Positions 9,001-62,144 of a DNA stretch of 64,000 nt are shown in pieces. The position numbers and the translations under genes were made by a program. Positions within the stretch are counted from its first letter, which is position 1, and the number at the start of each line of letters is the position of its first letter. Below the pieces are notes generated by a model. The model ran no database searches and was not told the DNA's origin. It was given only the letters and a program-made list of their open reading frames with translations. The stretch spans positions 230,422-294,421 of the forward strand of contig JAQGDQ010002376.1 of the NCBI GenBank assembly GCA_030141605.1, written 5' to 3'. This DNA is from Tubiluchus corallicola (lineage: Eukaryota > Animalia > Priapulida).

Positions 9001-9484
9001 AAAACAGCAGCAACAGCAGCATATGATGATGAATATGCCCCGTCAAAGAGTGCCAGCTTCCCATCAATTTCACCAGCCTCCAGCACCTCCGTATCCACAA
9101 GGAGGGCGACAGATGCATCAGCGAGCGGTAAATCCCCATTTATTAGCGCATGGACAGCCGCCACATCCAAGCCCTTCATCACAGCAGCTGATGCACCAAG
9201 TTTGCTCGCCACCTCCTAATCACACGCCCCCTGTGGCATCACCTCGCCAGCGACCAATGATGACACCATCTCCACGGCAACAACTCTCTCAGTCACCTCA
9301 TTTACCGACACATTCTCCTCATCCGGGTTTGATGGGTGCGGAGCAACAAATAGGTGGTGAAACGGTGCCTCTTCCTCAATCACAACAAAACCCTAGTGAG
9401 CAACTAGGAGTACCACCTGCATATGACAATTCGTCGCTTGCGATGCAGGATCAGTTATCACAGTTTGTAGTGGACCACTTGTAG
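1..9484 (+). CDS. CREBBP: CREB-binding protein / p300 histone acetyltransferase, 3' part (5' end lies outside the window)
   Basis: Phase-consistent GT-AG exons: 1-133, 404-561, 2200(or 2170)-2280, 2995-3129, 3429-3496, 3903-4050, 4449-4595, 4740-4853, 4949-5114, 5294-5521, 5645-5800, 6007-6282, 6500-6904, 7428-7646, 7963-8175, 8282-9484 (TAG). Motifs: bromodomain end ([16 protein letters not shown]), RING/PHD, HAT ([44 protein letters not shown]), Lys-rich autoinhibitory loop, ZZ, TAZ2 ([13 protein letters not shown]), NCBD ([13 protein letters not shown]...LKSNPELMA). Confidence 0.97.
2170..2280 (+). CDS. CREBBP: CBP RING-region exon with tandem alternative 3' splice sites (starts at 2170 or 2200)
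   Basis: AAG|T at 2167-2170 and CAG|A at 2197-2200 are 30 nt apart and in frame. The long form reads [22 protein letters not shown]. Donor AC|GTGAGT at 2280/2281. Confidence 0.8.
8282..9484 (+). CDS. CREBBP: CBP terminal exon (NCBD plus Q/P/M-rich tail)
   Basis: Acceptor TTGCAG ends at 8281; about 400 codons to TAG at 9482-9484; contains the NCBD/IBiD motif and ends [11 protein letters not shown]. Confidence 0.93.
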   Translation, partial: HPQRMGQPPVMINNQDVVNMQQHQMQGSQQALQQLLTTLKSPSSNQQEEVLSILKSNPELMAQCIKKSKTAQKEQELAQQTQQQFYQKFQRQLSDGHSAQMCGQPPTVSMNSMSMGGNPSGGKPVAMNQMSMGGNPMTVGCNTGQMGSMPTMLSGNHMSIASSQHSLICKPMMCASDKPSQLMSNNNPHMMSLNAHQTLGTRASMNGNQMGGKPGQMLNLRGSSTLDAQNQQQLAHQQWLKQQQQQHMMMNMPRQRVPASHQFHQPPAPPYPQGGRQMHQRAVNPHLLAHGQPPHPSPSSQQLMHQVCSPPPNHTPPVASPRQRPMMTPSPRQQLSQSPHLPTHSPHPGLMGAEQQIGGETVPLPQSQQNPSEQLGVPPAYDNSSLAMQDQLSQFVVDHL

Positions 9485-13810: not shown

Positions 13811-21294
<7,484 letters not shown>

Positions 21295-36092: not shown

Positions 36093-36132
36093 GTTTGCAA
36101 ATAGAATTTTCAGCTAAGTGGACTTTGTCATC

Positions 36133-39100
36133 ATGATCACTTCTGCTGCTGGGATCATTTCATTGCTGGATGAAAAAGAGGCAGACCTGAAGCTCTATGC
36201 CCTCCAGAAGTTGAATATACTCGTTAGTGATTTCTGGGCAGAAATATCCGAAGTGATTACAAAAATAGAAGTGTTGTATGAAGATGATGCTTTTAAACAT
36301 CGAAATTTGGCTGCACTGGTTGCATCCAAAGTTTATTATCATCTCGGGTCTTTTGAAGACTCGTTAACGTACGCACTTGGAGCAGCAGCATTGTTTGATG
36401 TTAATTCATCGTCAGAGTATGTGGAAACAATTATAGCCAAATGTATTGATCACTATACAAAACTACGAGTTCAAAATGCAGAAACAAGTGAACAGGTAGA
36501 AATCGATTCACGGCTAGAGGCTGTTGTCAACAAAATGTTTCAGAGATGCTTTGATGATGGTAAATACAAACAAGCGGTAGGAATTGCCCTGGAAACTCGT
36601 CGTCTTGACGTGTTTCAGGATGCCATAAATAAATCTAACGATGTATCTGGCATGTTATCGTATGCCCTTGGAGTATGCATGACATTGATACCTAATCGCC
36701 ATTTTCGCAACACTGTCTTAAGAGTTCTGGTAGAACTGTACAGTGGTTTGAAAACTCCAGACTATATAAGTGTATGCCAATGTTTGATATTTCTTGATGA
36801 TCCGGTTTCTGTTGCAGAAATATTGACAAAACTTGTGAAGGAAACTGACAACGGGACGCTGCTTGCTTATCAAATTGCTTTTGACTTGTACGAAAGTGCT
36901 ACACAAGAATTTCTCAATCGAGTTCACCAAGCTTTGCGTGGCACTGTAGCGCTGCCTGGATCCGAAGTTGCAACTGAAGACGAGGAAATGGAGACAGATG
37001 AGAAATCCGAGGAACGCAAAGAAACAGTAGATGCTGTTGAAACTGCAGAGACAGAAGAAGATAAAGAAACAAAAAGCCGTTTAGACAAGCTTACTTCCAT
37101 TCTCACCGGAGAAATTTCGATAGGTCTTCATTTGCAGTTTTTGATACGAAATAATAAATCAGATTTGTTAATTTTGAAAAACACAAAAGATGCTGTGCGT
37201 AATTCAGTTTGTCATACAGCGACAGTAATATGCAATTCTTTTATGCATTGTGGTACAACTAGTGATACATTTCTGAGGGACAGTTTAGAGTGGCTAGCAC
37301 GAGCCACGAATTGGGCAAAATTCACTGCAACTGCAAGTTTAGGTGTCATTCACAAGGGTCATGAGAAGGAAGCATTGAGTTTAATGGCAACTTACCTGCC
37401 TAAAGAAACTGGCCCTGGTAGTGCTTATTCTGAAGGGGGTGGATTATATGCACTAGGATTGATTCATGCTAATCATGGAGGTAAAATGATAGACTATTTA
37501 TTAACTCAACTAAAAGAAGCTACAACTGACATGGTTCGCCATGGTGCATGTCTGGGTTTGGGCCTTGCTGCAATGGGCACGGCACGCCAAGATGTCTATG
37601 ATCAGCTGAAGATGAATTTATTGCAAGACGATGCTGTGACTGGTGAGGCCGCTGGGCTAGCTATGGGTATCGTTATGCTTGGCTCAAGGTCACCAACAGC
37701 CATCGAGGACATGGTTTCTTATGCACAAGAAACGCAGCATGAGAAAATTATTCGTGGATTAGCAATTGGAATAGCTTTAGTGATGTACGGGCGTTTAGAA
37801 GAAGCAGATGCTCTTATTGAAAGTCTATCGTTAGATAAAGACCCTATTTTAAGGCGATCAGCCATGTATACAGTAGCCATGGCATACTGTGGAACTGGGA
37901 ATAACAGTGCTATACGAAGATTACTGCATGTCGCGGTTAGTGATGTAAATGATGATGTTCGACGAGCAGCTGTGGAATCTTTAGGATTTTTACTATTTAG
38001 GACTCCAGAACAAGTACCCAATGTAGTCTCTTTGTTGTCAGAATCATACAATCCACATGTAAGATATGGGGCTGCCATAGCATTAGGAATATCTTGTGCA
38101 GGAACAGGCCAGAAAGATGCTATTGCTTTGCTAGAACCCATGGCAAACGATACAGTAAACTACGTTCGACAAGGGGTGCTTATTGCTTCGGCCTTGATTT
38201 TGATCCAGCAGAATGAGGTTACCTGTCCAAAAGTGACATACTTCAGACAACTTTACACCAAAGTCATTAATGATAAACATGATGACGTCATGGCTAAATT
38301 TGGTGCTATATTAGCACAGGGCATACTTGATGCTGGTGGGCGAAATACTACCATTTCTTTACAGTCAAGAACTGGCCACACACACATGACATCTGTTGTG
38401 GGCATGTTAGTGTTCTTGCAGTTCTGGTTTTGGTTTCCTCTTGCACATTTTCTGGCTCTAGCATTTACGCCCACTTGTCTCATTGGTTTGAATGCAAACA
38501 TGGCCATGCCAAAGATTGAGTTCAAATCTGGTGCAAAGCCGTCGACGTATGCTTATCCACCACCTCTAGAAGAAAAGAAAGAAAAAGAGAAGGAGAAAGT
38601 TTCAACAGCAATACTTAGTATTACTGCAAAAGCCAAAAAGAAAGAATTAGAAAGAGAGCGTCATCGCAGCCAAGATAAAATGGAAGTAGATGAACCAAAA
38701 AAAGATGAAGTAGAGAAGGATTCAAAAGAGAAAGATTCAAAACAAAAGGATGCAAAAGAAAAGAAGGGTGCTAAAGCAGAGAGCAAGACCAAGTCGTCCA
38801 GCAAAGAAGCTGCCAACAAAGAAGCCATGACAAGCAAGGAAAGCACAAGTAAGGAGGAAGAAGTAGAAAAACTAGAAGAGAAAAAAGAACCGGAACCCAA
38901 TTTTGAAATGTTGTCAAATCCGGCTCGTGTCATGCGGGCACAGTTGAAAGTAATTAGCATGCCTGAAGGTACAAGGTACAGACCACTGAAACCGGTCTCT
39001 ACCGGAGGAGTGATTATGTTGCGCAATCTAAAAACCGAAGTACCAGAGGAAATTATAGAGGAAGTTGTTGCACATGGACCTAAAGTGGAGCAGGAAGAAG

Positions 39101-39144
39101 CTGAACCAGAACCACCCGAACCTTTTGAATATGACGAGGATTGA
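36133..39144 (+). CDS. PSMD1: 26S proteasome non-ATPase regulatory subunit 1 (Rpn2), single coding exon, 1003 aa
   Basis: Starts [14 protein letters not shown] (true ATG 36133, not the GTG at 36118). PC repeats ([38 protein letters not shown]); C-terminal [10 protein letters not shown] Rpn13-binding tail; uninterrupted ORF. Confidence 0.97.
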
Positions 39145-41334: not shown

Positions 41335-44300
41335 TTATTTAACATCAGCATCAAAATCTTGCACTAATAACTTTGTTTCTTCTGTACCATTTCTTGACCC
41401 AACAGCACAGACTAATTTCGTTTGACTTGCTCTGAAACAAAAATAAGTTGCTATCAACTAACGTCAAACAAAATAATAGTCCTGTTTCTAGTACAGCTAT
41501 AACGATACAATACTTATGATACATCTGAGTTAACATTTGCAGCCTTTATAAAAGATTAGATGAAGTTGTTGACAATGAAGGTTAAAATAATTCAATTAAC
41601 TGCTTGATTTTTATTCATTACTTGTGTAATGAGTAAGCTATTGTTTGCATAGAAAGCCAAGAAAACGTAAAACATGTCAATACTTTGAGTTTAAAAGGTG
41701 TTTGTGCATTTTCTGGCTCACGTTTGCCATTTCACAAGCTTATACGCAACAATGTAATTAGCCTACTACTGCTTTGGCTGCTAGCAATGCTTGTGTCAAG
41801 CCAACAACTTTTCAATGTACTCATTGATACGTTCTACAGCTACAGCTTCAATTACTTCACGTCAACTTTTATTAGCATACGATTGCCATGTTACGAGTGC
41901 ACTTCAAGATTCAACTTTAACTAAAACATTAGCTTTTTGAATGTGCCTAATATTAGCAATAAGGAGTCGGAAACATATTGTCTTGTCTAGACAGGCTGTG
42001 TTGTCTTGGCTAACAAACAAGAACTGATAACACAGTAAAAGTTTACTATCACCTAGTATTTTATTATGTTTACATAATTGAACTACATTAAAGTCGTGTT
42101 CAAAGTGCTTACTTATTAATTCTATAGCCACTACACTCCTATTTAGGGTTCAAACAATGTTTGTCATTTTTTATACTACTCTGTACTATTTCAATTCATG
42201 TTTAAAACTATATTTTTTGCAATGAATTATTGTCATTTCCAGGAATAAAAAATCTCATACAAGACCATATATTAAAAGTATAATTGCTATTATCAACTTG
42301 TTCTGCATATATCGCATCACACATATTTTGGGAGTCAATCTTAGTATGTTGTTTTTGTAATTTTCAGTTAGCTTACCTTATCCTCCACACAACACCACCA
42401 CTGCCACCACTATCTAAAGACACCAGATTTCGCAGGAATTCACCAGTCTTCAAATCCCACAGTTTTACGGTACCATCATCAGAAGACGTGATAACAAACT
42501 TGCTATTAAACTGCAAACAAGTGACCGCACTCTGATGTTTGTTGGGGCCTGAAAAGTGTTTACACATCTTGAATGTTATATTATCAATCAAGCAAGTGTG
42601 ACAGTCACAAAAGAATGTAGAATATAACTTGCCCCAGATAGAGGAAGATTAAGCAGATTGCTATCTAGGCTAACTATGTGCCTAAGTCAAACAAAAAATA
42701 CTGAGATTGTTTAATACAGAATATAAAAAGAAAAACATAACATGAACTTTTTGATAGAAAGAACACAGAATTATTAAATTCATAATTCAAATATCATCTG
42801 CGATTCGAGTCTAGACTCCAGAATCACTGCCAATTTCTTTAGATATATTACTCAAGTTTGGTATTAAAAATTCAATGAATTTCAGCTTGCCCCACCTTTA
42901 ACTGGCAAACTACAGTAGCTGAACATAGTAGTAAATAGTGGTAAAGTACTACAGTAGCAAGTAGTAATAGCAGCAGCACCAGTAGAAACCAGTAGTAGAA
43001 CACATTAAGGTAAGAGACCTAGTTTACCTGTTAATGTTTGCAAGCATTGCCCTGTCACGATGTCCCACACTTTGACTGTCGAATCAGCATTCCCCGACAC
43101 AAGTATGTTGTCCTTGAGCTCCATGCCACTAGTTAACGACTGATGTCCCATCAGCGTGTGTAAACAGTTACCCGTTTCAATGTCCCAAACACGTATCGAT
43201 GTATCCAGTGAACCGCTGACTACGTGAATGCCATCAAACTAAAATGTAAACATCAATCAATGATGTGAGAGACAAGAATAATTTACATAAACATTAAAAT
43301 ACGATACCAGTAGTACTAACAGATGCCATGTACTGTACTCCTATTCTTGTAATGGATGCATTCGTGTGCAGTGAAAACAAAGCGAAGAATTAGTTAACAA
43401 AGTACTTTTAAAATTACACTGATATAATAAAGATAATAACTGCAACTACCTAAATTTCCCAGGATTTCAATGTTATGTGATGAGAGAAAGTGGTACTGAG
43501 TGGGAGATTTTGTTTTTGTGTTTTGACCATTTACAACAGATGAAATACACCATTGCAGACTCCTGTTTCTGGCAAGATGCGACTTGACAACATATAAATT
43601 GTTAACAGTTAAAAGTACATAGTTACATAAAATTAATTTTTTACATGAAATTCATTTTTTTTCAAATTATGAAGTTAAAGTCAATGGCTCTTAATTTGTA
43701 ATTTATTTTGTTATATTAGCTGTAAAAGACATTTGCTTACTCGATTCTTGCTACTATTACGATCGATTTTTTAAAAATGCCATACCTGTAAGGAATAGAC
43801 ACGATTCGTATGTCCGGTCAACGTGTGTAGGCACTCTTCCGAATCCGGATTCCAAACTTTAACAGTGTAATCATACGCCCCACTAACAACCCTCTTGCCA
43901 TCATACTGGACGCATCGGACAGCAGCAACGTGACCCATCAGCACGTGCAAACACTCACCACTGTCAACGTCCCAGACTCTAAGTGTTGCATCCCGTGATC
44001 CACTCACTACTCTGAAATGCAGAAAGATATAACATATTGAATGCATTTGGAAAATGATAATATAATGCCATACACACTGAAAAGCAATAAAAATCTGAAC
44101 ACCTGCTTTCTCTAGATCTAGAATCTGGGTTACTGAACATTAAATTAACATAATAGTCAAACCTCTTTACACCGCCTACTTTGAGAATGCAAAAACGTTA
44201 TAGCGAGTCTGGCATTATAACAAGGTGCATTCATGCATACGTATTTATGCAAATACGGATATTTTGTTTTACTAAAATTTGGGTCCTGAGGGAGGTTGGC

Positions 44301-47300
44301 ATTACAAAAGGAGCGTTACTCCTTTTGTAATGCCAAACGAGGTTTGACTGTAAAAGTCACTGGGTAGATTAAAAGTACATTAAAAACTGAAAAAAGCTTA
44401 CTTATTCCCATGTAGATGCATGCATCGTACAGTTGACGTGTGCCCGTACAGAGTGTGCGTACACTGTCCAGTGTCGGCATTCCAAACCTTTAGTGTGCGG
44501 TCAGTTGAACCACTGATTATAATGTTACCCGACATCTGTGATGACCAAACACCGCCAGTGTGACCAACAAGTGTGCGTAAACACTAGAAAAAGTTGGATG
44601 TTGTATTATGTTGTTACAACTATTAAATTAAAACAGGCTTTCCTAATTTGTTACACAAAAGTTTTTGAACTTTGCTTCATAGGTCTGTATGTACAACGGA
44701 CACAATGAAACTGTAGGCAAAAGTGTGACTTAGCATTTTGTTTGTTATTCTATACATTGTTGTATGTTTACATTTGTATTGATGGAACATTTATGAAACA
44801 ATAAATAAGATATGTGTCCAAAGAAACTTCGCTTACCTTTCCGGTGGTTGCTGACCACACCTTGAGCGTGTTGTCATCCGATCCGCTGACAACCCGGTTA
44901 CCTGAGAACTGCAGACAGGTGATAACATGATCATCGTGTCCCTTCAACACCTAGAAAAGCACAAATATTTTTCCAATATTAAATAAAAAAATCTTTAGTT
45001 TTGCTTACCAAAACATATGGGCAGGATAGAAACTGAAATGTAGAATATCGTAATAGAATAAACTGACAACTCAAGGTTTTTTTGTAAGGCAAACATAACC
45101 GAAACTGAGCCCTAATTTAAACCTGGACTTTTGGATTCTAAATCCAATGCCAAGATAAGAAATTGAAATAGCCAGAACTAACTTTAGACTACAAGTCCAA
45201 TATCAGCTAGGTTCGTTCTCAGCTTTTCACATTTTTTTATTTGAACAAGTCTGGTTAAAAAAATCTCAACTAATAGCTCATACCATTATTAAGTGACAAT
45301 GTTATAAAAATTTAAAGATTATAAATAACAGCGCACGTTCTTAACTTATACCTTGGGCGTGCGAATTTGACCGACTCGCCAATTCATTTCAATCTGATGC
45401 TGTCGCATGTAAGCACTTTTCCAAGGACTTCGATGAGTGCCAGAGACTAATCTTCGTTTCCTAGATAAAAACAAAGCAAGGAAATCTGTAAAAAAAAACG
45501 ACCTGAGACAAATGAAATATTTGCGACAGAATTTCTTCATCAAGATGGATATAAAAATCAAGACTTAGACAACTTAATTCTCCGCACCAATTTAAAAGCT
45601 TAAAGGAAGTATTATCTATCAACATAAAAACTGGAACAATAAATGAAAGATGAAAATAAAACAGCAAAATACTTTTGAAATTTTATGCACACAATTGATA
45701 AGAACATCTCATAGTTCTAAGAGTTTCAGGACAAAATCGCATTCTAAAAATATCTCTGTCGTTGGGTATACACTTTTGTTTGCTCTACTAAAGAGTCCCA
45801 TGAAGCAGGTATGCTCTACTTAGAATAGTTTAAATGGTTTCAGGTGTTTGAGCTAATACAGTAGAAAATGACAACCCCATTATTAGCAGTTTCATTTACG
45901 GAAAGGGGTGACAAGAGATTACTAACACAAGTGTAATGTTCAGTGGATGCACGTGCATGTAATATGTAAGTTTTACTGTAATATGTAATATGCAAGTATA
46001 ACAGGCTATGCCATCACAAACACCGTGACAAAACAAGATTCTAATGTATATGAAATTCAAGAAACTAGGCGCAAGGCAAAAATTTTGCCACAAGCGCAAT
46101 GTAAAAGTGAATGATTGGAAGTCAATCGAGTTTGACTGAAACCATGCTGTCACTAGCTTATTTTTAATAGCAAACATTCTTAATCATGTTTCTATGCTTC
46201 ATTCGTATAAGAACAAAAAGCCAATGTCGTGCTCTGTATAAAACTGCATACATACTTGTTAAACACGACTGCCTCGTCTATTCCAGCTTCTCGGCACTTC
46301 TCTCGCCAAAGTAGATTATCCTCGGCTAACACACGCCAATAACGACATGTCTGAGCCGCATGTAAAAGTGACCGAGGCTCCAAAAACGACAACACGTACA
46401 GGGCAAGCTAAAAAGGTCAACATTATGTTATGCATTAATTTCACTCTGTATCATTATCTATTAACTATTACTGATCTATTAATTATTACTGACTGTAAGC
46501 AGTTAGTTTTTCAACAGCAAACACAACTTATCTAAGCATAATAGTCTTATAATTTTCCAAAGTTCAAAAAAATTTAAGCAATTTTGGAAAAATGGCCCGC
46601 AGGCATTAAATTTTATATGAAAATGAATGAATGAATGTCTCTGTCGTGAGTGTAAAACTTAAATGAGCCATGGTCAATAAATTGCGACAGCAAATTGCAG
46701 ACTATTTTTCTAAAACGAACCAGAAAGTTTACAAAAAAGCTAAAACAAAAGAATATTTACACGGTTTTCCTCTCTCGTTCAAATGACTAATTATGATGCA
46801 TTAGGTGAAATTGCAATGCACAAATGCTGGTCATTTCCAAGTTTTTTTTAAATATTAGGAGTACACAATAATTAACATTAGCAACTACAAATAGTGCATG
46901 AAAAACTATTAGCTTAGAGCAGTGGTTCTTAACCTGGATTCGATCGAACCCTAGGGGTTCGGTGAGTCGATCTCAGGGGTTCAGCAGAGTGGCCAAGGTG
47001 AAGCCATGCATATCTGAACTGGTCTCTCAAAGGCAACAGCAGAAGTCACACTGATTTGCAGGTATGTAATTTGTTGTGAGTTTATGCATTGTGTTGGTTT
47101 TGTTCTTTGAATAAGGTGATGTTCATGCACGGCTCATTTTGTGTACCAGTAAAAAACATATCTATGTCTTGAATTTGAAAAAAATCATATTTTATTTTTC
47201 ACTAAAGAAGGGTTCGGTGAATGCGCATATGAAACTGGTGGGGTTCGGTACCTCCAACAAGGTTAAGAACCACTGGCTTAGAGGCATACCAACTCCTGTT

Positions 47301-48340
47301 AGTTCAACAGCAATTCAACTAGATGGCAGAATCAGTGCTCTAAACTTTGGTGTTGACCATAAAATGTGCATAAAATGGCAACAGAACTGACAAGTAAGAG
47401 GAAGCATTATAAGCTAGTGCTCTTACAAATTACCATTTCTGACGCAGCAAAAATTTGTATCAAAACTCAAATTATGTGAATATTAGAATTACTTGTTAAC
47501 CTAAGAAATATGTTAACATGAGAAATGAAAAACAGTTAATTACCTCTTTTGGCAATAAGCTGATAAAATCCCTCTGAAATTGTGGCTCAATAACAGTCAT
47601 GATATGTCGTACCTGTGTTGGCTCACATAATTCTATTAGTTGATCTAACGCTAGCAAGCGCTCAGCATTACTCCATGACTAAAAGTAAATACAAAAAATA
47701 TTTAGCTCTTACAATAAAGAAATCATCACCTTCGTAAAAGAATCAAGAGACTACATTTTTTCAGATTCAGATGACCACAAGCTTTCTCAAACATACAACT
47801 TTATCTACACACAACGATTAACTATGAGCAATTTTTTTCCATTTCTAAATTTGCGATCAGTATGAATCTCAAAGTAAACTGACCTGAAATACTTTTAGCC
47901 ACTCGTTCATCTCCACTGGTGGATTAGATTTGGACGGGATGCGTCGTCGTGGCGTTAATGAGGCAGATGTAGCGCCTGTTGGTAAACCAAAAGCCTGATG
48001 ACGGTCTGCCATCACTCCCTCTTGTGGTGGGTAATGATAACTAGCTGACCTGAAATTTTCGTTTAAAAACGCAGTAATATTGCTGAATTTAAACTGGCAC
48101 TTAGCGGACTCCTACTTTTCTTTAAAATGAAAGGTAGCAATTTTGCTATAAAAATACGTATAAGATACGACTGTACCACACTTACTGGGAATAGAACGGT
48201 GGTAGGCTATCGCTAAATTGGCACATTTTTCTGGTGGAAGAAGAATTCGGTGTTCCAGTTGGGGAATCGCCCGACTTGCGCTTGATCTTGGCAGCACAGT
48301 TCTCTGTGGTAGGCTCATCACGTTCTGACTTTCTTTTTGA
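41335..48340 (-). CDS. FBXW7: F-box/WD repeat-containing protein 7, common exons (dimerisation domain, F-box, WD40)
   Basis: Phase-consistent exons 48340-48186, 48049-47884, 47678-47544, 46407-46256, 45460-45352, 44950-44837, 44583-44402, 44011-43786, 43238-43028, 42548-42377, 41431-41335 (TAA). Motifs [20 protein letters not shown] and [12 protein letters not shown]; phosphodegron-binding arginines intact ([24 protein letters not shown]); ends [21 protein letters not shown]. Confidence 0.97.
46920..47275 (+). mobile_element. Non-autonomous hAT (Buster/Charlie-type) element, 356 bp, in an FBXW7 intron
   Basis: Perfect 16-bp TIRs CAGTGGTTCTTAACCT / AGGTTAAGAACCACTG; perfect 8-bp TSD GCTTAGAG (46912-46919, 47276-47283); retains a transposase-like C-terminal remnant ...[14 protein letters not shown]. 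Confidence 0.92.
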
Positions 48341-48849
48341 CTAAAAGAAAATATTTAAAATTAATTTAAACAACCAAAATAAATGAATATTTATGTACAA
48401 ATGTACATAAAATGCAGCGGAAATGGCAAAGTATAATTTTAAACACCTGAAATGAAACTCAAGCAATGACTAATGGAACGTTACCTTGCCAGGTGTCATT
48501 CTGTTTTTTCTAAGTCCTGACAATGCAGTCAAATATTAGCAATCACTTTCATGGAATACGTATAATCTTAAAAGTAATCCAATGACATAAAACCAAAATA
48601 AACAAAAAAAACCAACATTTTTCATTTGTCTACTTTTTAATTAAACCTGTAAATGTAGCACAGAAAACAAAGAAAAGATAAATTTCCAGGAAAGTGTGTA
48701 TTCTTACAAGAAATCAATCAAATATCGTAAAAACACAAACAAAGAAAGTAAGAAATAACTAGAGAGTCATTATGTCTGAGATAACAGCACTACGAATGTC
48801 AGAATTTCTTAAATGCATGAAGCATACTAAATTCAAGAAATAATCATAA

Positions 48850-49318
48850 AGAAGTCACAGTGCCCTTTGAATCTCAAAAACTTTTATTTTTCCAGAAGCT
48901 TTCATTCCGTCACGGACTACATGTAAAGTGTAAGTATACAATGACATTAAAATAGAGGATACAAAGTTCATTAAGAAGGCTTTATTTCATGATCTATTCT
49001 AGGCCATACAAGTAGCTTCAGGTATGTTTGTCAGCAGTTTCATTTTGATCTTGATTTTTTTTATTAATTAGAAATTGTAATGTTTTTTCTAAATAAGTTT
49101 TTAATACAGCTTCCCAATGATTTTTTTTTCTATTTTAGTTTTTAATACAGCTTCTTAATGAATTTTGTATCCCTTATTTTAATGCCATTGTATACTTACA
49201 CTTTACATGTAGTTTTATCTATAATTTTTATGATTTTTTAAATTGTTGTATCTCTACCAAGCACAAATGCACCAGGGAAAATAATTTTTTTTGAGACTTA
49301 AAGGGCACTTTGTCTTCT
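48850..49318. repeat. Long imperfect inverted repeat / foldback (MITE-like) element
   Basis: ACTACATGTAAAGTGTAAGTATACAATG.CATTAAAATA..GGATACAAA.TTCATTAAGAAG (48916-48978) is the reverse complement of about 49150-49213; outer arms are AGTGCCCTTT.A.TCTCAAAAA / TTTTTGAGA.TTAAAGGGCACT. Confidence 0.8.
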
Positions 49319-51756
49319 TCAAGCTAAATTTAAGAAAGTTCAATGTTGCGTTAAAATTGTAAGACAGGAGTAAAACCAGTTACTGAGTGAGTAGCACGTT
49401 GGATTAAGGAGTCACCACTAGTGAAGGTGGATCCTAGTGAAGGGGCAGGTAGAGCATCATGAGTGATGACCCCAAAAATTATAATTAAAAAAAACTTTTT
49501 CTTTTTCAGGGAAATCTCAGCCTGAAAGCAGTAATTAGCGAGTTAAAAAGAATCATAATGTTTGTAATCAAACTCCAAACTCATAGATAAATTTTAAATG
49601 TCATCAAATTAGTTGGCTCTCAACTCAATAATAGATTTTTACACATTGAAATGTGATAACCCAATGAATAAATAAATACTAATGATGATGATGATGATGA
49701 TGACAACGACGACGACAACAACAACAATAATAGTTGATTAACTGAACAACAAAAGTGTGAAAAAATTGTGAGTCAACCAGGCAATTAGCAAGTTTACTTT
49801 TATTTCAATTGGTTAAATCTTGTGCAAGTAAAATAAGATACGTACAGAAATCCATGCTAAAAATTAATGATAGTTTAATTAATTAGTTATTAATGTGACA
49901 TTCATTAGTTCTTGAGAGTTTTGGTTGCAAATGCTGCAATTAATTAAATTCATGAGCTCTGCTAAAACATTCAAATTTTCTTATTTCTATGATCAAATTG
50001 ATAGAAAAACAGCAAAGCTGTGTTAACGTAATTTGTGATTGATGAGGCAAATTACTGAAACATTGGCGTGTGGTTAAAAATCAGTCATGGTGATTGTTAA
50101 TTTGACATTTTGTCAAGTTTTCAGAAATTTGAAAAAGAGTTCCAAAAAATGCTTTACAAATAAATAGTTTCAGATACTGAGCTTCTATAAATGGCTTTTG
50201 CATGACAAACCTCCCACACAATTTACTTAAAATTTTACTGAATATCATATACAAACAACTAGTGCTTTAGAAAGAGAAAGGAACAGAGCTACAAGATGTC
50301 CTCTTTCAAAAACATCATACAGTGTGGGTTAAGCAATTGTATAATTCCTTGTCGTTGACTTTTCTCTTGAATATTCTACTAAAAAATATTTTAATGTCCA
50401 ATATAATAATTATTTAAAGCAAACTTATTATTTCTATAGCAGACTTAGTGAAGTATTTGAGACGGGGTAGCAAAAGACAGCGGAGAGCCGTCATTGATTG
50501 TTCAGTACTGCATGGACGTTTATTAGGTACTTTACATAATTTACATACTTTACTCATATACTTGTTCATGCCTTTGTTAATGAGTACAATACTTGTTGGC
50601 ACACACTTTAATTATGTGTAAAACGATAACAATTCCACGATTATGTGTAAAACGTTTTTGCAGGACGTTTGTTTGTCAATTTTAATAACAATATTGCTGC
50701 ACACAGCGCTCACTCGAAAAATTGTGACTACTAACGAGTGTTATTACCACTTACAATGAGCTATTTATTAAGCATAATAATTCCTGTATGCATCATTATA
50801 CATTTTGGTATGCCATTTTGTTATTAGTGTTACGTATCATTGAATGTACATTGCTTTTTGTGACAAATAATAATAAATCTAGAAACAAAGCGGTTTAGCT
50901 TTTACAAAATGCCAATGTATCACCTTAAGAAGCAATTGGTTAAATTAAATTCGGTGTAACTCAAACAGTCTAGAACAGTGTGACAAAAGCTGGCGATAAA
51001 AGCCTGACCTACAGTGCAAAAACAATTACGTGCGTCATCAATTTTACAAATTGTTACACTACTTGACATCAATGACACCTTTGGTAACAGCGTCTCGCCC
51101 AAATTTTCTTACAAAGCGCACGCTACTGAATTCAAGGTGTTATATCAACAATCAACGCACAGTCAAATGGTCGCGAGTTCGAGACACTTGCTGGCTGTTC
51201 TTATATATAGTTTCCCTTTTAGGCTAGCCGGCTTACTGATTGGCATTACAATATCCTGGCGCGTCTATGAGGAAAGGAGGCACCTGAGATGAGCAGTGAA
51301 AGAGCTTATCAGTATGCTAAGACAGGAGCGCCGGCACAGTAAATAAATGAATGGGCCCAATAAATGAAAGAGGCCAGCGATAAAGTAGTAAAAATTGCAC
51401 GAACACGTACGCATGTTTAACACAAAAAACATAATGCCTTATTGTTGCTTAGCAACTATTTTTGTTTTTAATGTTCTTGTTTCACACCGGTATATACTGT
51501 TTTAACACTTCTTATGTAATTTCCTGCTGATAATACCGCTAGAGTGAAAGCTTCTGAAATAATATAATGCTAGAAATGAGAGGTATAAGTTTTGCAAAAA
51601 AAAAATGGCAAAATGGCCATTTTTGGAGGCTTTTCGCCCCCGTTCCTCCCCTATATACCACTGAAATTATATATATGGTCATTGAGACTATAATGGGCAT
51701 TATGTTTTTTATGTTAAAGATGACAAGTCCCATATTTTAAACGTATGGATACTTAC

Positions 51757-51873
51757 CATTCGTAGTATATGGATGTAAATTATAAAAAAAAACTGTAGTA
51801 GTACAGTAGACGCTAAAAACCGTCTAAATTTCAATAGTATGTGTAAGAATAGGACGCAAAAATTTTTTGACAT
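51757..51873 (-). CDS. FBXW7: Candidate alternative first coding exon of FBXW7 (hydrophobic, beta-like)
   Basis: ATG-initiated 39 codons MSKNFCVLFLHILLKFRRFLASTVLLQFFFIIYIHILRM ending at ATG|GTAAGT; phase 0 matches the common-exon acceptor at 48340. Confidence 0.45.
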
Positions 51874-53232
51874 AGTATTCATTTTGTCAACACGTTACAT
51901 CAACGCATGCCTACATGCCTATAATATAACAGCAGCACATTACTTGAAGTTTTCCAAACGCTAGACGGATATGGGTAACACAAAATTAACAGACATTACG
52001 TCGTCGTCGATAATGGTAGAGACACTGAACAGTAATGAATGAATCTCTATTATTAACTCCCTACATAGGCAGATTTTGATGAAAACAAAAAAAGGAAGCA
52101 ATTCCTTAGATGGATCAAAAGTGAAGCCAAAAAAAATATTAGCGAATAAAGAAAAGGCACAGTATAAATAGAAATACATGTGTGTCGAAAAAAACTTCAT
52201 AAAGTAAACAAGAGCTATGAATTACAATCGTCATAATCACTGGCTATTTAATTGACACGTTTTTCCTCATGAAGTGCACAAAGGAGTTGCAGAAGACTAG
52301 TAACCAAAAAGGCTAAAAAATGGGCTAGTAATGTAAGAACAACTGACAGAGAAAAACAGCGAAAAAAAGATAATATGGGACACAAGGGGGAAGGATAGAA
52401 CATATTGTCATCATCGCTATCGTCATCGTCATGGTCACCATCATCATCATCGCATTGCCTCAACTTGTATTTTTATGATATTATACAATACATTGAATAC
52501 CATCACTACTATACAAAACTACTAATGTACAACCCCAGTACAAGTATGGTTAGATTTGCTTTTGTGAACAACTGATTTAAAGCAACAAACAATTTAAAAG
52601 CAGCAAAGTAAGAGAAGTAAGTGAGTTTACTTTATGTCAATTTACATTACATACGAATATGAGTATTAGCTTATAATGTATAAAGAAAATCTACTTAATA
52701 AGAGGTTGTTCCGTAAAGTTAAACAGATATTTCATATTACAAAAGTGAAGATACATGGGATCATTACCAACAATATCTCTTGCTTCTTCATTTGAAAATG
52801 TGAACATCTTTACTCTCTTTATAATAATTACACAAGTCGAAGGACGGAGAAGCACTGATTAGTTTCACTGTTAAATCAATATTCATTAAATGATAAATAA
52901 ACAACACATGCCATGATGCCCGTACATCTTTATTGAACTGCACAGCAATTTGTAACTGATAAATCAATTTTTTGTAAAAAAAAACCTTGCCGCTATTTAG
53001 GAAGATTTACCGCTATTCCGTCTTTCTTGATAACTGAGGAGGACAGACCAAGAAAAAGAGAAAGAGAAACGGAAAAGAGCCAGAGAATGAAAAAGACACA
53101 GAAATAGGATCGCGAGAGAGAGAAAGAGACAGATCGTCGTTTGCTCCGAGTGTGTTCGGAATCAGACCAGCCGCCAATCAATACTTAATCAAAGGCCAAA
53201 AACAACAGTGCAATGTGATTAATCAACCTTAC

Positions 53233-53295
53233 CTTGGGAGTAAAAATCAGCGTGACACGAGGTTTGCAAGATGGAGCATCATCCAGTACCCACAT
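53233..53295 (-). CDS. FBXW7: Candidate alternative first coding exon of FBXW7
   Basis: MWVLDDAPSCKPRVTLIFTPK ending AAG|GTAAGG, phase 0; in-frame stop upstream; GC-rich promoter-like patch at 53470-53560. Confidence 0.55.
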
Positions 53296-56070
53296 TCTCT
53301 CCCGACCACCGCTCCACAGCTTCTGGCCGTGACTTTTCACAAACCAGTATAATTTTGACGCTCTTGATGAAATTATAGTGCTAGAAATTAGTTTTCAGTC
53401 TGAATGTGTGCCATTCATGGCAAGACAAAACGCCTTTATACTGGTGTGACTGAGACAGGACTGTTATTCCGCTGCGGGCGTTTGCATTGCGCCCGGGGGG
53501 TGGAGGGGCGCAGCGCACCCACTTGCATGTAAAGGGTAATAGCACGGCCCGTAATGACGCCCACATAATGCTAGCATGTGCAACGGGCTAGTACCTGACG
53601 GCAAAGTAGGGACACTGTGAGCATTCACATACACTAAGTGCAGGCATACAAATACAAATAACACGCAATTGCTAGAAATTATTCAACTGCAGCACCTAAT
53701 TACTGGGATTCTTGCTTTGAATGCTTTTAATGTGAAACATTTCTAAGTTCCAACATGCTAGAAGCTTTAAGTCTGAAAGTCGCTTCAGCAAATTTTCTTG
53801 AATAAACTGAGCAGGTGAACGTACATCAGTATGCAAGCTTCAGGGATATTAAAAATAAAAAATCTATCTATCTAACCAATGAAAAGTCACAATAGGATCG
53901 ACCAGAGAGCAGCTAGTCCAAGGTCTGTACTAAAAGGCGGCAGGCAAACTAACGTCTATCAAATACCAAAAAGAAAGAAATCTGTTAATAAAAATTAAAG
54001 ACAATTTCCATTTTCCAATCACCCGAATACTTATTAAGAATAACGACTGGGCTGCTTCAAGGAGATAGCCTGCCCCACCCCGCCTCAAGGATAATAAGCA
54101 GAACTTGTGTAATCAGTGCTAAACTGTGCAGCGTCTATCTTCATCTAGTAAATCTGGCACTAAAGACATATTGAGAACAACTCAGCAAAGTTTTTCTCCT
54201 ATCAAGATGTTCCACGCCAGTAAGATGCGCTCAAGGCCGCTCTGCGCCGACAAGGCAAGCTGTGTTTCTCGACCACAGCCAGGGCACTTAATTGCCTGTA
54301 TAATATGCTGTAATACAATAAAAACTGTCATAATAACACAAAGCAGCGTTTTCGCATACAATACTCGCTTGTTTTGAGCGCCGTTTTTATGCAAAGTAAA
54401 CAGTTTAATGCAGAGAACGGCCGCCTGATCAGATGTCAATCACTCACGCACGCATATGCGTGAGAAAACTCTCAGCGGACTGTGCGCTTGTGAGCATTGA
54501 GCACGCAGTAAATGAAAATCATTCTCAGCATGCGTGCACGGTCAAATTGCAAATTGAAAAACCGTTCACACTAGTAACCAATCTTCATTAAAGCTAACAT
54601 TAATCGATTTATTAATTAATTAATTAACTGTGCGCGATAAGTTGACTAACACATCTTGCCTGCGTGGCATTAATTGAACTATATATATTACGTAATAAAT
54701 ATATGCATTACTAAGTTATAATTACTGTTGTCACCATAAACTAGTACCAATAATATAAAAGTTATGTGTGACTAGTGCAAACGTGATTGAAAGCAAACAA
54801 AGACAACGACAACAACAAACATTAGCCAGTGCATGGACATTAAGAGAGATCGTATCTTAGAGCCAACTGTTAATTTTTTAGTTTTTTAATAGGCTAGCTA
54901 TTAGACATTTATAGCTTATTATGATTAGACAAACGATTATGATTAACAATTGTTTAAAATGACATTATATTTAACAAATTCGTATAATTGAAATTATTAA
55001 TTACATGCATACAGTATCCCGAACATGTAAGAGCTGCGACTAAGTTTTTTTTCACTGCTAGTTCCAATTGTCTGATAAAACAACAATTATTTTTAATTAA
55101 TAGCCTTGAGTAACAACATAAAAGTAAAATACCGATTAAAAATTAATTAGCAAATTTAGTTTATTTGAATAATGAAAATGTGATTACTTCATATTGGAAA
55201 CCAAATATCTGTATGAAAAGTAGCAACTGAAAACAACAGCCTGGACAACTTCACTTAAAGATTCGCAAAATAAAATTAAACTACCGACGATAATGCTCAC
55301 TCATTCAATGTCAAGTTTTCAAAAAAAAGAACAACAATAACAACGTCTTTATAAATTATTCACTTACAATGTCAATGACAGCTTGGATTGTAACCAACAC
55401 TGAACATACAAAAAACATCACAACTACGCAACGCGTCGGACATTTTAGTTACATACGTAATTTTGACAAGAGGCAGCAGGTCTGCTTGCAGAAAAAGTGA
55501 AATTAGGTAAGGGGGTCATGCAACTCAACACGCCTTTATGGGTATTTGTCGATAACCGCGAACAATCAAAACGCAGGCAGTTGTCATTCACAAAATCAAT
55601 TCCTATATCAATAGGATCTGATCACAGCAAACTGTAATCTGCTAAATTTCGTGGATGAATAAAAAGTACAACGCATTAGTTAGGGCAGAATGTTCGTAAC
55701 AGTTTGCAAGTTACGTGTATTGTTATTTAATGCAACAAATCAAGCACTCATTTAATCAATTAGTGAATAATCAATTCTAATCACTAACAGCTGTCATTCC
55801 TGGCTACCATAAATTTGTATATTTAAAAAACTGTATTCGCTTTCACAGATTTATAAGATTATTAGATCCACATAATTACATACATTTGAACAACAATGAT
55901 ACTGTATAATTAAATCAGAGCTTTAAAAAGCAAGTATGTAAGTGAGGTACTTGAGAAGTAAACATACTTGTGTAAAGCATTGTGGATATGTGAAGAAAGG
56001 AAGAAAAAGTATGAAAAAACATTGAAAGCATAGGCAAGAAAGCAGATGAAGATAGATAGAGAGACACACA

Positions 56071-56128
56071 GAGTTAAAAACAGTACTGTGAGTTAAAAAC
56101 AGTACTGTGAGTTAAAAACAGTATTGTG
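56071..56128. repeat. 19-bp tandem repeat x3
   Basis: GAGTTAAAAACAGTA(C/T)TGT repeated three times. Confidence 0.9.
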
Positions 56129-59100
56129 AAACTCTACCTATTTACATTGTTTATGTATTTTGACATAGTATATTACTAATTCATTAGCATTTAAAAATTT
56201 ATTCAATTTTTTTTTTGTATATTGTGCGAGTGTGTTATAATAAGGCTAACGTTGCATACTTTTCTGCACTAGTTCACTAACGTGACTGTATTGTTTGTGC
56301 TAAACATATACGAATAAATGGTAAATAAAAACATGTATACACAATCAATGTGCTAACATCAGTTCAACAAAACATAAGATTCACATACAAGATCACTAGA
56401 CATTAAAAAAATTGTGATCATGCAAGATAAACAAGCAACCGAATGCTTCAAAGTTTGAAAATGGTATTTTATTATGAAAAAACTTTAGCAAATTTTGAAT
56501 TAAAAAAGTACCAAAAACTAATATATGTTAGTACATATACACATTTTAATATATCACATCCATTGCAGGGCTTATGAACTCAAGAATGGCATAGTTAAAT
56601 ATATATCCAACATGGTTTTGGAAATGTTAAAAAATGAACTCTGACATATCATAATCTAGCACAAAACATTTTAACCTCTGCATTAAGCGGGGTTAAATAT
56701 TTCTAGATTTTAGCTCGAGGGCAAAACCCAATTACCTGACAAAGGCACACGTGCTTTGTGTACAACTTGTGTCACTTTCTCCTAAAGCTGAGCAAAAGTC
56801 TCATACTTATCAATTTTGTAATGTTCACGAATAAAATAATCAGAATAATTTAAATTCTTCTTAAAAATGAAATTTCTGCTATTTTTGCAAGTAGAAAAAA
56901 TATTGTTGTGTCAGGTGGTGCAAAAAAGTGCGAATTTTTGATTACAATATTATCGTAAGAAAATAACATAGCACAGCATGTTTGCAGCACAACAAATGTG
57001 AAAAGCAATACGAAACTATGTATGTCTCGCGGTAATCACAAAAACATACAAACGCACAGTTCTCATAAAGACATTTAGACTGAGGATAGCAAAGTGACCA
57101 AAGGCCACCAGTTTATTCTGCCTTGAGCACCAAACAGGCCGAAACAGCCCATGTTAAATACCAAAATTAATATACTGTGCATTCACTGCACTGTTAACAT
57201 AAGCATTTTTTTAAACAAAAGCAAATTTATATAGCACATTTTAACAAAAGAGTGAAATAGTGATTATAAACACGTGATAAATATTCCGACTAAAATTATG
57301 CACCTTCAAAAATGGGGGAGATGAAATTGGTGAACGTGAAATTCAATGTCCTTGTATGTGGCACAACTAAATACATGTGGACATATAAGACACTAACAGT
57401 AGTATAGCTAATAGGGGAGTAAGGGGAACCACTGCTTCCCCAAGCACATATTTCAAAATTGGAGCCTTTTGAAATTTTTTAACTATTTAGTTCTCTTGTG
57501 CGATAAAAGTTGAATCTTTTTTTTTACATGTAAAATCAAAGTAATTAAATAACACACATTTTAGTATATTTTGAGATTTATGAGCTTACTATAAAACTTT
57601 TCATTGTGTTTTAATTTTAAATATAACACAATAGTTATGTACTTTAGAACTACATTTTCCTCATGTTTTGATTTTAAATACAAACCAAAAATGTATAATT
57701 AATGCGTTAAAAAATGTTTGGTAAATGTGACGGTGCCTTTTTTATGTGCTTGCTACTTCTAATTCTATGACCTGGCTACGCTCTTGAACACTAGTATGTA
57801 GTCAAAATGTTTGGAAATCATTATAAAGCTCTTTTTAGATGACTGATGTAATTTACACGGCTGCTGGGTACAAGACTTGGTGTGATCTAGGGCTGTTAAA
57901 CGATAGAGTAGTGTAAAGCCCGGAAACAAAACAACTAAGTTCTGCAACAACTAAGTTCTGATAAGCTTGTTTTACTTCTCCAAAATCCAAATTTTTGACA
58001 CCTTCACTGAATATGGTGATTCCTGAGAAGTGGGTAGAACTAGTTCCTGATTTTTCATTCACAGTTTAACTATCCAGTTTCAGCGAGTCATACAATGAGC
58101 AAATACTTGCATATGAAAAAACGAAATTAGTTAGGGTACAGACCTTTACAATTTTCATAAATACTCACAAACTTGCAGCTACAGTTAACAACTTTATGCC
58201 ACTTAATGACAATTTGCAATCTTAACACTTCTACAGTAAATGATGAACAGCATGGCCAAGCATCTTAACAACGTACCAACATAAGGCATTAAACAAATGT
58301 TTGGTCATGGTGAACATTCATGTATAATGTTGGAACAGTTGACCTCAATCACTTATGCATACCTCTGATCTCATGTATTCATTTACCTGAGCATTGTCTC
58401 GACAACGACTAGGAAAGCAACGTGGATGGAAATTGATCACATTAACTGCTACATGTGCGGCAAATAAACATATCAATTTAGTTAGGTGAATAACTTCCCT
58501 AAGTTCTAAAATCTTTGTTTTACAAATGTATAATGAGTTGCTACTATATCTTAATTAAATACTGATAACTTGTGTATCTTTAAAGATGAGAGAAGGTGAC
58601 AACACATCACATCATTATCAGCTTGAAAAACATCCAACTACTGTTGAATGTTATGTCATTCAAATAAAGTTCAGTTGGCTAGCTTATCGTTTTTGAACAG
58701 TTATTTACTGCCTTTATAAGCATCAAAAACACAAAAGTTAAAACTTGAAAGCTAACTAAATCCGTGCATGTGCATGTCCTAGACTTCAGCACAATTTATC
58801 AAAAAATACCTGTTATGGTAAACTTCATAGACTGGGAATATGGCCTTCAATTGCCAACAGTATGTTAACTGATTCTACATGTACATTCTCATTCTTACTT
58901 ATACAGTGCTTTTCTATAGTGCTCAGATATAATCATCTGTCAGTAGCCTGTGTCACACCTCGTTACCAATCCTAACCTCACAGCCCATATTTTCCATGTA
59001 TTCTGCCATACTTCACTTGGCTTTTCAACAACATTATTTCTAGGTTATCTCATTCATCGGTGGGATGTGGTTATGTCTGTGAGTTCAGTAAACAATACCA

Positions 59101-59576
59101 CATACGATCCTTTCATTTTTTACACACTTCACCACACTGCAAGTCATAATCGCAAGCGCTCACTTACCAACACGTGTACTCAAGAAACAATGGTTGTGGT
59201 AGGACGAAAACCTAGCTCATTATCACAGGTAACTCTCTAAGACAAGCCATCATCAACAGTAGGGACATCCGAGTGATGACGTACATCTTCTATGAGGTAT
59301 ATCCAGCCACAACCAATAAGATGCATAAAACTTACACAAGTATTGAACCCAGACAGTCAAGAAATATTCACAAGTGACCACTTGGCTATGCAGCTTGCCC
59401 CAAAATACAGTGCATTAGTTTGAATGCACAACAAGATGTAATCATCTACATGTATTAGATCAATTTTCCATATTTTTATACGCTTATTTCAGTGCAGAAA
59501 GCAAACAACAAAATCTCTTACCAATTTGCGCTGCCTGATTATCTTGGTGCAGAAAGCAAACAACAAAATCACTTAC

Positions 59577-59822
59577 CAATTTGCGCTGCCTGATTTTTTC
59601 TGTATGTTCATCGACTATAGTGTTCTGTTTAGCTGCCGCTATTTCATCAGCTTCTATGTCGCTTATGTCACTCTGCTCTCTCTCGCCAATACTATTATCA
59701 TTATCATCGCCATCATCATCATCAGTATCACTGTCTCCGTTGTCTGAGGCGCAAGTAGTAGCCATTGTGTTCTTAAGGTGTAATAAAGTCACTGCACTGG
59801 TGGTTTCCAAAAGTGGCGTTGT
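59577..59822 (-). CDS. FBXW7: Acidic 5' exon (82 codons), probably of the long FBXW7 isoform
   Basis: TTTTTACAG|ACA...TTG|GTAAGT, phase 0/0; encodes SDNGDSDTDDDDGDDNDNSIGEREQSDISDIEADE...IRQRKL, acidic like the Fbw7-alpha N-terminus. Confidence 0.7.
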
Positions 59823-61186
59823 CTGTAAAAAACGACAATTGTATATTACAATCACACAAAGGACCAGCTATATAATGTAAAAATGCCTGTGGAGACAATG
59901 TCACAAGCAAAATATAACTATCATATGTTTATGGTTTAATACATTTAGAGGCTTAATTGATATTTTTCTAAGCAGAGCTCAAGATGCGGACGGTACAGTT
60001 ACAATTCTTACTGACCTAATGGCCAATAAGACTTGTCTGAAAAACATAATAAAATTCCTAACAACATTTTTCTAACACATGGGTTTCTGCTGAAGCACTC
60101 GTGTGAACGATGGCACAAAATCTTTATCACAAGAGTGCAAACCACGTCCTCAAAGAAATGATAAAAAAATTGGACAATCATGGCATGCTAACAATTTTAG
60201 CTGAATGCCCACAACAAAAGTTGATAAGCAGGATACATTACAATTTTTTGCTGGGCAGCAAAAACTAACCAGCAGCACCGTCAGACGGCTGTGGTACTGG
60301 ACTGATAGTATTAAAAGCATCGGATTAGATCTCCAGAAGACTATTGTAGATGTTACTATTTTAAAAGATTGTTTAACTAAAGTTTGAAATTAGCTCCCAC
60401 AAACTAATACTTAAAAATTCAAGGAACCCAATTATGGCATGTGCCTATGTGTGCACGAATAGGCATGAAATGCAAATCTTGGAACACTGAGCTATTACAT
60501 ACAGGATCAGTATTAAGTTCATTAAACCAAGAACATCTTTAAAAGTGAACTGATTAACAAATTAATAAATCAATGCAGCATTAATTATATCATAAGCAAA
60601 CCGGAGCATTCTCTTGGCATATTCTGCATGGCTATTCTAAAGCAATGACTGATTGAGAGTGCTTCAAATGAAGTATAACTTGACATAACTGCTTCATGTT
60701 TGTGACAGCACTCATAATGAAAGATGGAGAAGCTTTCGGTGGTTAGTAATAATAACCATGGTGGATAATACTTTTTCTTCACATCACATGCAACTGCTAA
60801 ATCTCAGTAAGTGCGTAAAGTTATGATCACGATAAATATCTTGTAAGCCGTTCAAGCAACAATATGGTAACGAAAAGATAAATAAGGTTCTAAGCCTAAT
60901 GTGTGCCTATAAAACCAATTCTGCATTAAGGCAAGTAGAAATCAGCATTTAGCATGCTTTACGAGTTTTGCGGTTTAACTTCAGTCTCCATGGTGCTCCA
61001 TCAGTGAAGATGTTAGCTAGCTGTTAGCTGCCCGAGTGACGCTTCACTCCTTCATTTCTTTAATAAGAAAATGATTTTAAAACTAAATAAATTTTGTCAC
61101 CATCTCATTATATTATCATCACTATCATCATCGTTATCATCAGCTAATCCTTAACAGTCACCATTGATGATGATCATTTTACTCAC

Positions 61187-61376
61187 ACATGCAGATGGTG
61201 ACGGTGTGTCAGTGCATTCAGGCGGAACATCATCTTCTTCGTCAGCCACCTCTTTTAAGTGTTGATTTGGATGACTAGTAGACGGTTTCTCTTTTCCAGG
61301 ACTACCATGGTCCATCTCTTTACCTGTGCGTTCTAGGGCCAACCACTGTTTAGTTCTAGCAGAACTACGAGTCTCA
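61187..61376 (-). CDS. FBXW7: Disordered linker exon, probably of the long FBXW7 isoform
   Basis: CATCTTTCCAG|T GAG...TGT|GTGAGT, phase 2/0, open frame ETRSSARTKQWLALERTGKEMDHGSPGKEKP...TPSPSAC. Confidence 0.7.
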
Positions 61377-62001
61377 CTGGAAAGATGAAAGCTTAGCTAC
61401 TAGACATTCTACATCAAATCATTATCACCAAACAAACCAATTTTATAACAGTAACAAACCAACCTTAGAAAGTTTTTTAGAATGTTGCCAATTAAACCGC
61501 TGACAAAAAATCTGTTTGTTTCACAAAGCACATGCACGCACACACGCACGCATGCATACACACACACACACACACACACATGCTCATACATGCATGCGCA
61601 CACACATGATAAAACAATTGTCCGCACTTCAAAAAACATAAAAAGGGCCAGAAACTGACAGGACCAGGAAAAAGTGAGAAGAAATTTTCGAGATAATACC
61701 TAGCTCAGTTTTTGATCAGTTTGTCAGTCACAGTTATTAACCTTTTGTAGCACAATGGTTGAGACAGCGAGTGTCCAACATGCTCTTGAGAGCACCAACA
61801 TAGCATTATATGATGCCATTTTAGCCAATTTCAAGGGTACTCTCAATGAAACACTTAAGAAGTGTAGGCTATCTGAGATCTCCTCTTAGTTAGTAGATTC
61901 CTCAAAAAGCTCTCTCAACCTGCAGTCGAGCTGAGACAGATTCTATCCCATTAAACAGAAAAGGCTTTTTCTTAAGAATGGTTGGGTTAAGAACTACTCA
62001 C

Positions 62002-62144
62002 CGCCGGCATGCCTTTGCCCGGCGTGCTGCTGCAATCTGTGCAAGCTTTGAGCAGATGAGACGGTGCCGGTTGAGATTGACAATGTTCTCTCCGATGCCT
62101 GGAATATCTGAAAGATCCTTCACGCTGACGAAACCACCTCGTAT
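62002..62144 (-). CDS. Exon encoding the second motif of a ComEA-type (HhH)2 DNA-binding domain
   Basis: TTTTGTATAG|ATA...CG|GTGAGT, phase 0/2; IRGGFVSVKDLSDIPGIGENIVNLNRHRLICSKLAQIAAARRAKACRR; in frame with the 61376 exon. Not in the supplied ORF track. Confidence 0.75.

Follow-up and report, generated by a model that had tools for sequence, protein, structure and literature searches.

FBXW7 (Fbw7, Archipelago, SEL-10) combines an F-box with a WD40 propeller, and a review of its human isoforms describes them with only three domains (PMC6406609). Double helix-hairpin-helix (HhH) domains of the type considered here are found in ComEA, a DNA-uptake protein (family HHH_3, PF12836; PDB 8DFK, 8DSS, and 2DUY), and in EEPD1 (PDB 9YI2), which is described as a dimeric metazoan protein that applies (HhH)2 domains to double-stranded DNA (PMC12988330). 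The main text of that description makes no mention of FBXW7, the F-box, or ComEA (PMC12988330). Here we analyze a stretch of 64,000 nucleotides from the priapulid Tubiluchus corallicola (contig JAQGDQ010002376.1, positions 230,422 to 294,421), which we call the window. Three minus-strand exons in it, at 62144-62002, 61376-61187, and 59822-59577, probably form the 5' part of a long FBXW7 isoform with an ancestral layout, in which a ComEA/EEPD1-type double HhH domain is predicted to tether the protein to DNA.

The gene in the window has the F-box, the WD40 propeller, the three arginines, the common exon with a basic motif, and the acidic N-terminal linker of described FBXW7 proteins, but its long form would differ from the known isoforms in having a folded HhH domain ahead of the linker. 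As judged from relatives' domains, the likeness to ComEA extends to four helices without a linker helix, two hairpins, and the position of ComEA residue K164; the FBXW7 domain differs in its weaker second hairpin, its family-specific N...C end, and its occurrence as one copy on a nuclear ubiquitin-ligase adaptor. EEPD1 is the best whole-chain PDB match of the domain profile (E = 6.6e-26, over two domains), but it has two (HhH)2 domains per chain plus an EEP domain, whereas relatives' FBXW7 proteins have a single HhH domain, after which come the linker, the F-box, and the WD40 propeller.

Gene model and splicing

The first-pass annotation of this DNA joined the three exons to an FBXW7 common exon at 48340. 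The exons are 143, 190, and 246 nucleotides long, have AG acceptors and GT donors, and run through phases 2, 0, and 0 in frame into the exon at 48340. Together with eleven downstream exons located by tblastn they make a 14-exon model that is a single open frame of 765 codons, which confirms their positions and phases. The HhH exon (62144-62002) is matched without differences by one contig of a DNA sequencing run (X1). The 14-exon model is 83% identical to Priapulus caudatus FBXW7 over 579 columns, and the FBXW7 core is 92% identical over 482 columns. It contains an F-box followed by a WD40 propeller and, when aligned to a bird FBXW7, retains the three arginines that bind the phosphodegrons of substrates. 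The common exon opens with Ser and not with Met, so the FBXW7 core requires an upstream exon. A tree of 36 FBXW7 cores places the window sequence as sister to Priapulus (support, 99/95), and in a second tree (26 rows, with long branches added) it is nearest to Priapulus by path, with the grouping unstarred; both trees were midpoint rooted and built from subsets of our choosing that contain FBXW7 sequences only.

Evidence on splicing comes from run X2, which was picked by its species label (the same label as X1) and which we take, as a guess, to be RNA. Its contigs are ~8 to 12% different from the window in exons, and a difference at about 1 letter in 10 indicates that they come from a related population or a sister species. 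X2 contigs skip 48341-59576 (117 letters on the shorter side of the joint) and 59823-61186 (58 letters on the shorter side), and both skipped segments are bounded by CT..AC on the forward strand, which corresponds to GT-AG introns of the minus strand. The view of the first-pass annotation that no separate terminal exon follows 59577 therefore holds, since the junctions 59577->48340 and 61187->59822 are both present in spliced contigs. A separate terminal exon, which would make the HhH exons an independent gene, is excluded by the first of these joints. A 55-bp tandem duplication at 59492-59595 copies the donor of exon 59822-59577, and splicing at the second donor would put the frame out of step; in X2 the first donor is the one spliced. 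Fusion of these exons to FBXW7 is thus supported by two of the three splice junctions, by the open frame, and by a layout and exon boundary common to relatives.

The HhH domain and its distribution among animals

Scanned alone against Pfam HHH_3, exon 62144-62002 gives a match as had been expected, but a weak half-domain match (positions 38-63 of 65; E = 0.0067; 16.9 bits, with a cut-off of 27). We therefore rely on a profile built from 21 relatives' N-terminal domains with the window left out. In a scan of 3502 six-frame segments of the window, exon 62144-62002 is the only real match to this profile (E = 1e-10; the next has E = 2.6). The same scan found no exon for the first HhH motif within the 64 kb, in line with the earlier expectation that it lies outside, and only the second motif is within the window. 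On a profile of invertebrate domains alone, the exon scores 75.

The full domains of 4 invertebrate carriers that were scanned score 45 to 61 bits on HHH_3; for 3 sauropsid carriers, the HHH_3 match lay beyond the 25 rows listed. A ten-row domain profile has ComEA (60 bits) and EEPD1 (54 bits for one domain) as its best PDB matches. Searches with the 47-residue exon failed because a half-domain is too short: compared with longer proteins it had no match among 21 candidates, and a PDB search returned only matches with E > 0.3. In an Atlas search with a relative's domain, all clusters returned were HHH_3 clusters of bacteria and phages (0.82 to 0.88), which we treat as a lead only. When a relative's domain was modeled with AlphaFold from an alignment that included the window exon as one row, the model had four helices and no linker helix (predicted local distance difference test score [pLDDT], 83). 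In a Foldseek search followed by realignment, this model matches ComEA 8dss with a Z score of 12.4 and a root mean square deviation of 1.1 Å over 66 residues; the next fold matches are Tex, secretion protein K, TEFM, KIF22, and PsbU. Based on the HHH_3 scores of relatives, the PDB profile matches, and the fold match of the model, the ComEA/EEPD1-type identity first proposed from the exon alone is borne out.

The fusion is not lineage specific, and in this genome it is ordinary for its family. A protein search with the F-box exon returned many proteins with Pfam HHH_3 among the best 120 of 699 matches. Within a collection of 439 proteins, 284 have the FBXW7 F-box motif; of these, 64 have the full domain and 11 the second half only, counts that include isoforms and search-selected sequences and are not independent. 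When 145 further cluster representatives were added, 42 matched the FBXW7 F-box region and 6 of the 42 had the domain or its second half (Hyalella, Eriocheir, Cyprideis, Styela, the more divergent Clytia, and one bird read-through model). Other carriers among the matches listed are Lineus, Lingula, Aplysia, Haliotis, Dreissena, Mercenaria, Anolis, Podarcis, Carettochelys, Manacus, and Gallus. The carriers thus span a cnidarian, a tunicate, a brachiopod, nemerteans, molluscs, and crustaceans, and in reptiles and birds the domain sits on a second FBXW7-like gene. It was likely present in the common ancestor of cnidarians and bilaterians, and several lineages have likely lost it since. The second FBXW7 copy of a goby is also modeled without the domain. 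The Priapulus FBXW7 model begins at the common exon and has apparently missed its 5' exons, as models can. Two caenogastropod models lack the domain kept by other gastropods, a possible recent loss.

This distribution overturns the rarity implied by the first-pass annotation, since the layout is widespread and Pfam HHH_3 is already on public records. The combination of HhH, F-box, and WD40 is present in automatic database annotation; in the open literature we found no description of the HhH domain of FBXW7, the sauropsid paralogue, or the upstream extension discussed below, although closed papers or supplements could mention them. HhH-FBXW7 is a real, ancient, and apparently undescribed variant of FBXW7.

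A vertebrate paralogue and a likely remnant in FBXW7-alpha

Lizards, turtles, and birds, chicken among them, have an FBXW7-like gene that keeps the full HhH, F-box, and WD40 layout. It is known from database models alone, in which it lies directly downstream of RRP8. In the 26-row core tree, the two vertebrate genes group together with the tunicate outside (support, 99/99) and the sawfish on the canonical side (91/88), so that the sauropsid gene is a vertebrate duplicate, sister to canonical FBXW7. The pair may have arisen by whole-genome duplication, which would fit the synteny. Read-through models that fuse RRP8 to the FBXW7-like gene are often labeled RRP8 isoforms, which hides the gene. 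In nine such models, which have five distinct sequences ahead of the joint, the paralogue is entered at the residue aligned with the window exon acceptor, versus 27 models in which the paralogue has a normal first exon, and a nemertean isoform joins at this residue as well. An intron position common to the window, a nemertean, and sauropsids argues for a single origin of the fusion. After the vertebrate duplication, one copy would have kept the domain, while in the canonical copy the exon for the first motif would have disappeared and the second would have become what is predicted to be a single helix.

Canonical FBXW7-alpha likely keeps a recognizable remnant of the second-motif exon just ahead of its annotated start. 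In canonical models that reach past the annotated Met, 23 residues align without gaps to exon 62144-62002 and have the same exon start. Among the 96 such models collected, there are 58 different 10-mers upstream, and column identity leaps from ~0.3 to 0.9 at the exon start. With the first profile, all 15 tested canonical segments scored above 2000/2000 shuffles, each being the best window of its protein. With the invertebrate-only profile, 6 of 6 scored above 5000/5000 shuffles (0 of 5000 as good), and none of the 6 proteins had a better-scoring window. On the latter profile the canonical remnant scores 23 to 26 and that of the sawfish 10.6; in a background of 72,542 windows, two reached a score of 10, a true HhH exon and one unrelated window (13.7). 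The 23 residues are 22/23 identical between owl and tenrec and 21/23 between owl and needlefish, while the remainder of the exon is 119/163 identical between owl and tenrec. Profile-profile tests of the remnant against HhH gave E values of 0.0007 to 0.0017 with probabilities of only 16 to 27%, so the case for the remnant rests on position and similarity. The remnant does not have the HhH fold: it is predicted as one continuous helix from which the hairpin glycines are gone (predicted template modeling score, 0.28, from a shallow alignment of 7). The earlier statement that vertebrate Fbw7-alpha has no HhH thus stands in that the hairpin glycines are gone; it falls short in that canonical alpha keeps a likely remnant and one paralogue the whole domain.

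In 45 models, from sawfish, teleosts, lizards, birds, echidna, bats, canids, and horse, the 23 residues are preceded by a conserved Cys-rich first exon; a gibbon model begins at the second Met of this exon. Both elements come from predicted gene models, none of them human. The Cys-rich exon is followed by a basic amphipathic stretch, and it is absent from the three described FBXW7 isoforms. From its sequence, it appears to resemble a lipid-anchoring signal. The exon was also considered as a diverged first HhH motif, a reading that found no support: in local profile alignments no more than about ten residues at its end are covered, the global profile alignment falls short of significance (E = 0.049), and the predicted model is not folded. 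Counting against a human long form, a study by 5' rapid amplification of cDNA ends reports that the human upstream FBXW7 exons are non-coding and add no new reading frame (PMC3498124). We see an even chance that FBXW7 was ancestrally a DNA-tethered receptor and that the mammal-type FBXW7-alpha is a truncated form whose Met lies inside the old last helix; the 23 upstream codons would then still be translated in a longer, undescribed isoform with a Cys-rich, possibly lipid-anchored first exon, and the reptile and bird gene would keep the intact head.

DNA tethering and its alternatives

The long isoform would consist of an N-terminal double HhH domain, a basic tail, a long acidic linker, the dimerization region, the F-box, and the WD40 propeller. 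The HhH domain would grip the DNA backbone without sequence preference. FBXW7 dimerizes, so a Skp1-cullin-F-box (SCF) complex would present two HhH domains, which together would hold it weakly, by avidity, to chromatin or to damaged DNA. Such a tether would concentrate the ligase around phosphorylated substrates that are bound to DNA, for example Myc, Jun, and Notch; more speculatively, the acidic linker may tune tethering as a competing polyanion. Human FBXW7 is described in one study as reaching DNA breaks through poly(ADP-ribose) binding by its WD40 propeller, with phosphorylation of Ser26 keeping it there (PMC6486556). To this recruitment, the HhH form would contribute direct contact with the DNA backbone.

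We consider DNA tethering by HhH-FBXW7 somewhat probable, on the strength of sequence and of the predicted fold. In a study of ComEA, the Geobacillus equivalent of Bacillus subtilis K164 is required for DNA binding (PMC9747964). With ComEA numbering placed on the FBXW7 domains from spacing in the PDB profile match, this position is basic in 23/23 relatives' domains (K in 15, R in 8), and the first-hairpin glycines are kept in 23/23. Several observations weigh against tethering and against the importance of the domain. The K164-position residue of this species is on an exon that the window does not include. Conservation is poorer in the second hairpin, where 13/23 domains have G at the second glycine position and the K193 position is R in only 5/23 and never K, with N in the window exon. 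In the EEPD1 study, (HhH)2 domains on their own formed no stable contact with DNA, and cutting their number from four to two impaired binding (PMC12988330); an FBXW7 dimer would hold only two. Models from flies, a butterfly, a mite, a nematode, and the two caenogastropods have no HhH domain, which indicates that FBXW7 can do without it, although a gene model without the domain is weak evidence that the gene lacks it.

A less likely but still substantial possibility is that the fusion is real and the domain serves in protein interaction or self-association, or binds RNA or poly(ADP-ribose), instead of tethering DNA. The ComEA-type fold also occurs in PsbU and type II secretion protein K, which are not known to bind DNA, and this counts against over-reading it as a DNA binder. 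The second hairpin is degenerate in sauropsids and gastropods, while a family-specific N...C domain end is kept (N in 21/23, C in 22/23), and the near invariance of the vertebrate remnant after hairpin loss suggests a surface valued for something besides DNA. Set against this are the first hairpin and the K164 position, kept in all 23 domains compared, and the best sequence matches, ComEA and EEPD1, which are DNA binders.

It is improbable that the domain mainly brings the protein into the nucleus or keeps it there by means of its basic faces and tail, leaving substrate choice unaffected. In the window, as in relatives, the domain is indeed followed by a basic run, which lines up with the KRRR of canonical FBXW7-alpha and may be an import signal, but import needs no folded four-helix domain with invariant hairpin glycines.

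Least probable of all is that the HhH exon, decaying or skipped, lies outside the FBXW7 transcript of this species and that the long isoform begins in or just before exon 61376-61187: the junction 62002->61376 was not observed, X2 having no contig over 61310-62144 at 88% or 80% likeness and one contig ending at 61309, just inside an in-frame ATG at 61315, and the model of the nearest relative, Priapulus, starts downstream, but nothing in the exon is broken, its splice sites are canonical and its phase fits, it scores 75 on the invertebrate profile, and it sits where relatives have it. X2 is also without contigs over the FBXW7 core exons at 44668-48002, which must be transcribed, so the gap at 61310-62144 is uninformative either way.

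The features of the gene are collected in Table 1, in which the label "dimerization region" follows the general layout of FBXW7. The candidate short first exon is the only ATG-to-strong-donor phase-0 mini-exon within the 11.2-kb intron; the segment 53233-53440 (minus strand) could be an internal promoter and first exon and might yield an HhH-less isoform. No X2 contig lies over 53233-53295.

Table 1. Features of the FBXW7 gene in the window
Feature	Position	Strand	Evidence or remarks
Exon with second HhH motif, conserved N...C end, and basic tail	62002..62144	-	Phase-0 acceptor, phase-2 donor; match to relatives' profile
Linker exon, low complexity, acidic stretch	61187..61376	-	Open only in the frame fitting the phase-2 intron; donor joined to 59822 in X2
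Acidic linker exon spliced to FBXW7 common exon	59577..59822	-	X2 joint 59577->48340
Candidate alternative short first exon, 21 codons, phase-0 donor, unconfirmed	53233..53295	-	TATAAA at 53440-53435
FBXW7 common exon, basic KRK motif	48186..48340	-	Joined on both sides in X2
Two exons (48049-47884 and 47678-47544), dimerization region and F-box start	47544..48049	-	tblastn with Priapulus FBXW7, 83% and 77% identity
F-box exon	46256..46407	-	Pfam F-box-like, E = 2.5e-13
Seven exons, helical linker and WD40 propeller, three substrate-binding arginines kept	41335..45460	-	

Elsewhere in the window, a single uninterrupted frame of ~1000 codons at 36118-39141 (plus strand) lies tail to tail with FBXW7. 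Its translation resembles the proteasome subunit PSMD1/Rpn2, and, being intronless amid an intron-rich region, it is possibly a retrocopy. In translation, exons at 1-9500 (plus strand) resemble the C-terminal half of CBP/p300, and those at 14300-19100 (minus strand) a ribose-phosphate pyrophosphokinase.

The interest of this locus lies in the family history that it exposes, rather than in a fusion in this one genome. FBXW7 is a heavily studied tumor suppressor; most of its substrates are transcription factors bound to DNA, and FBXW7 itself is recruited to DNA breaks. Its N-terminus has been treated as a disordered address tag, and a folded domain of nucleic-acid-binding type there, in many animals, would offer a direct route to chromatin. 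Chicken cells carry both FBXW7 paralogues, so tethering is testable there. The remnant offers a possible reason for the near invariance of the sequence immediately ahead of the alpha start, and it predicts a longer FBXW7-alpha isoform that standard constructs would miss.
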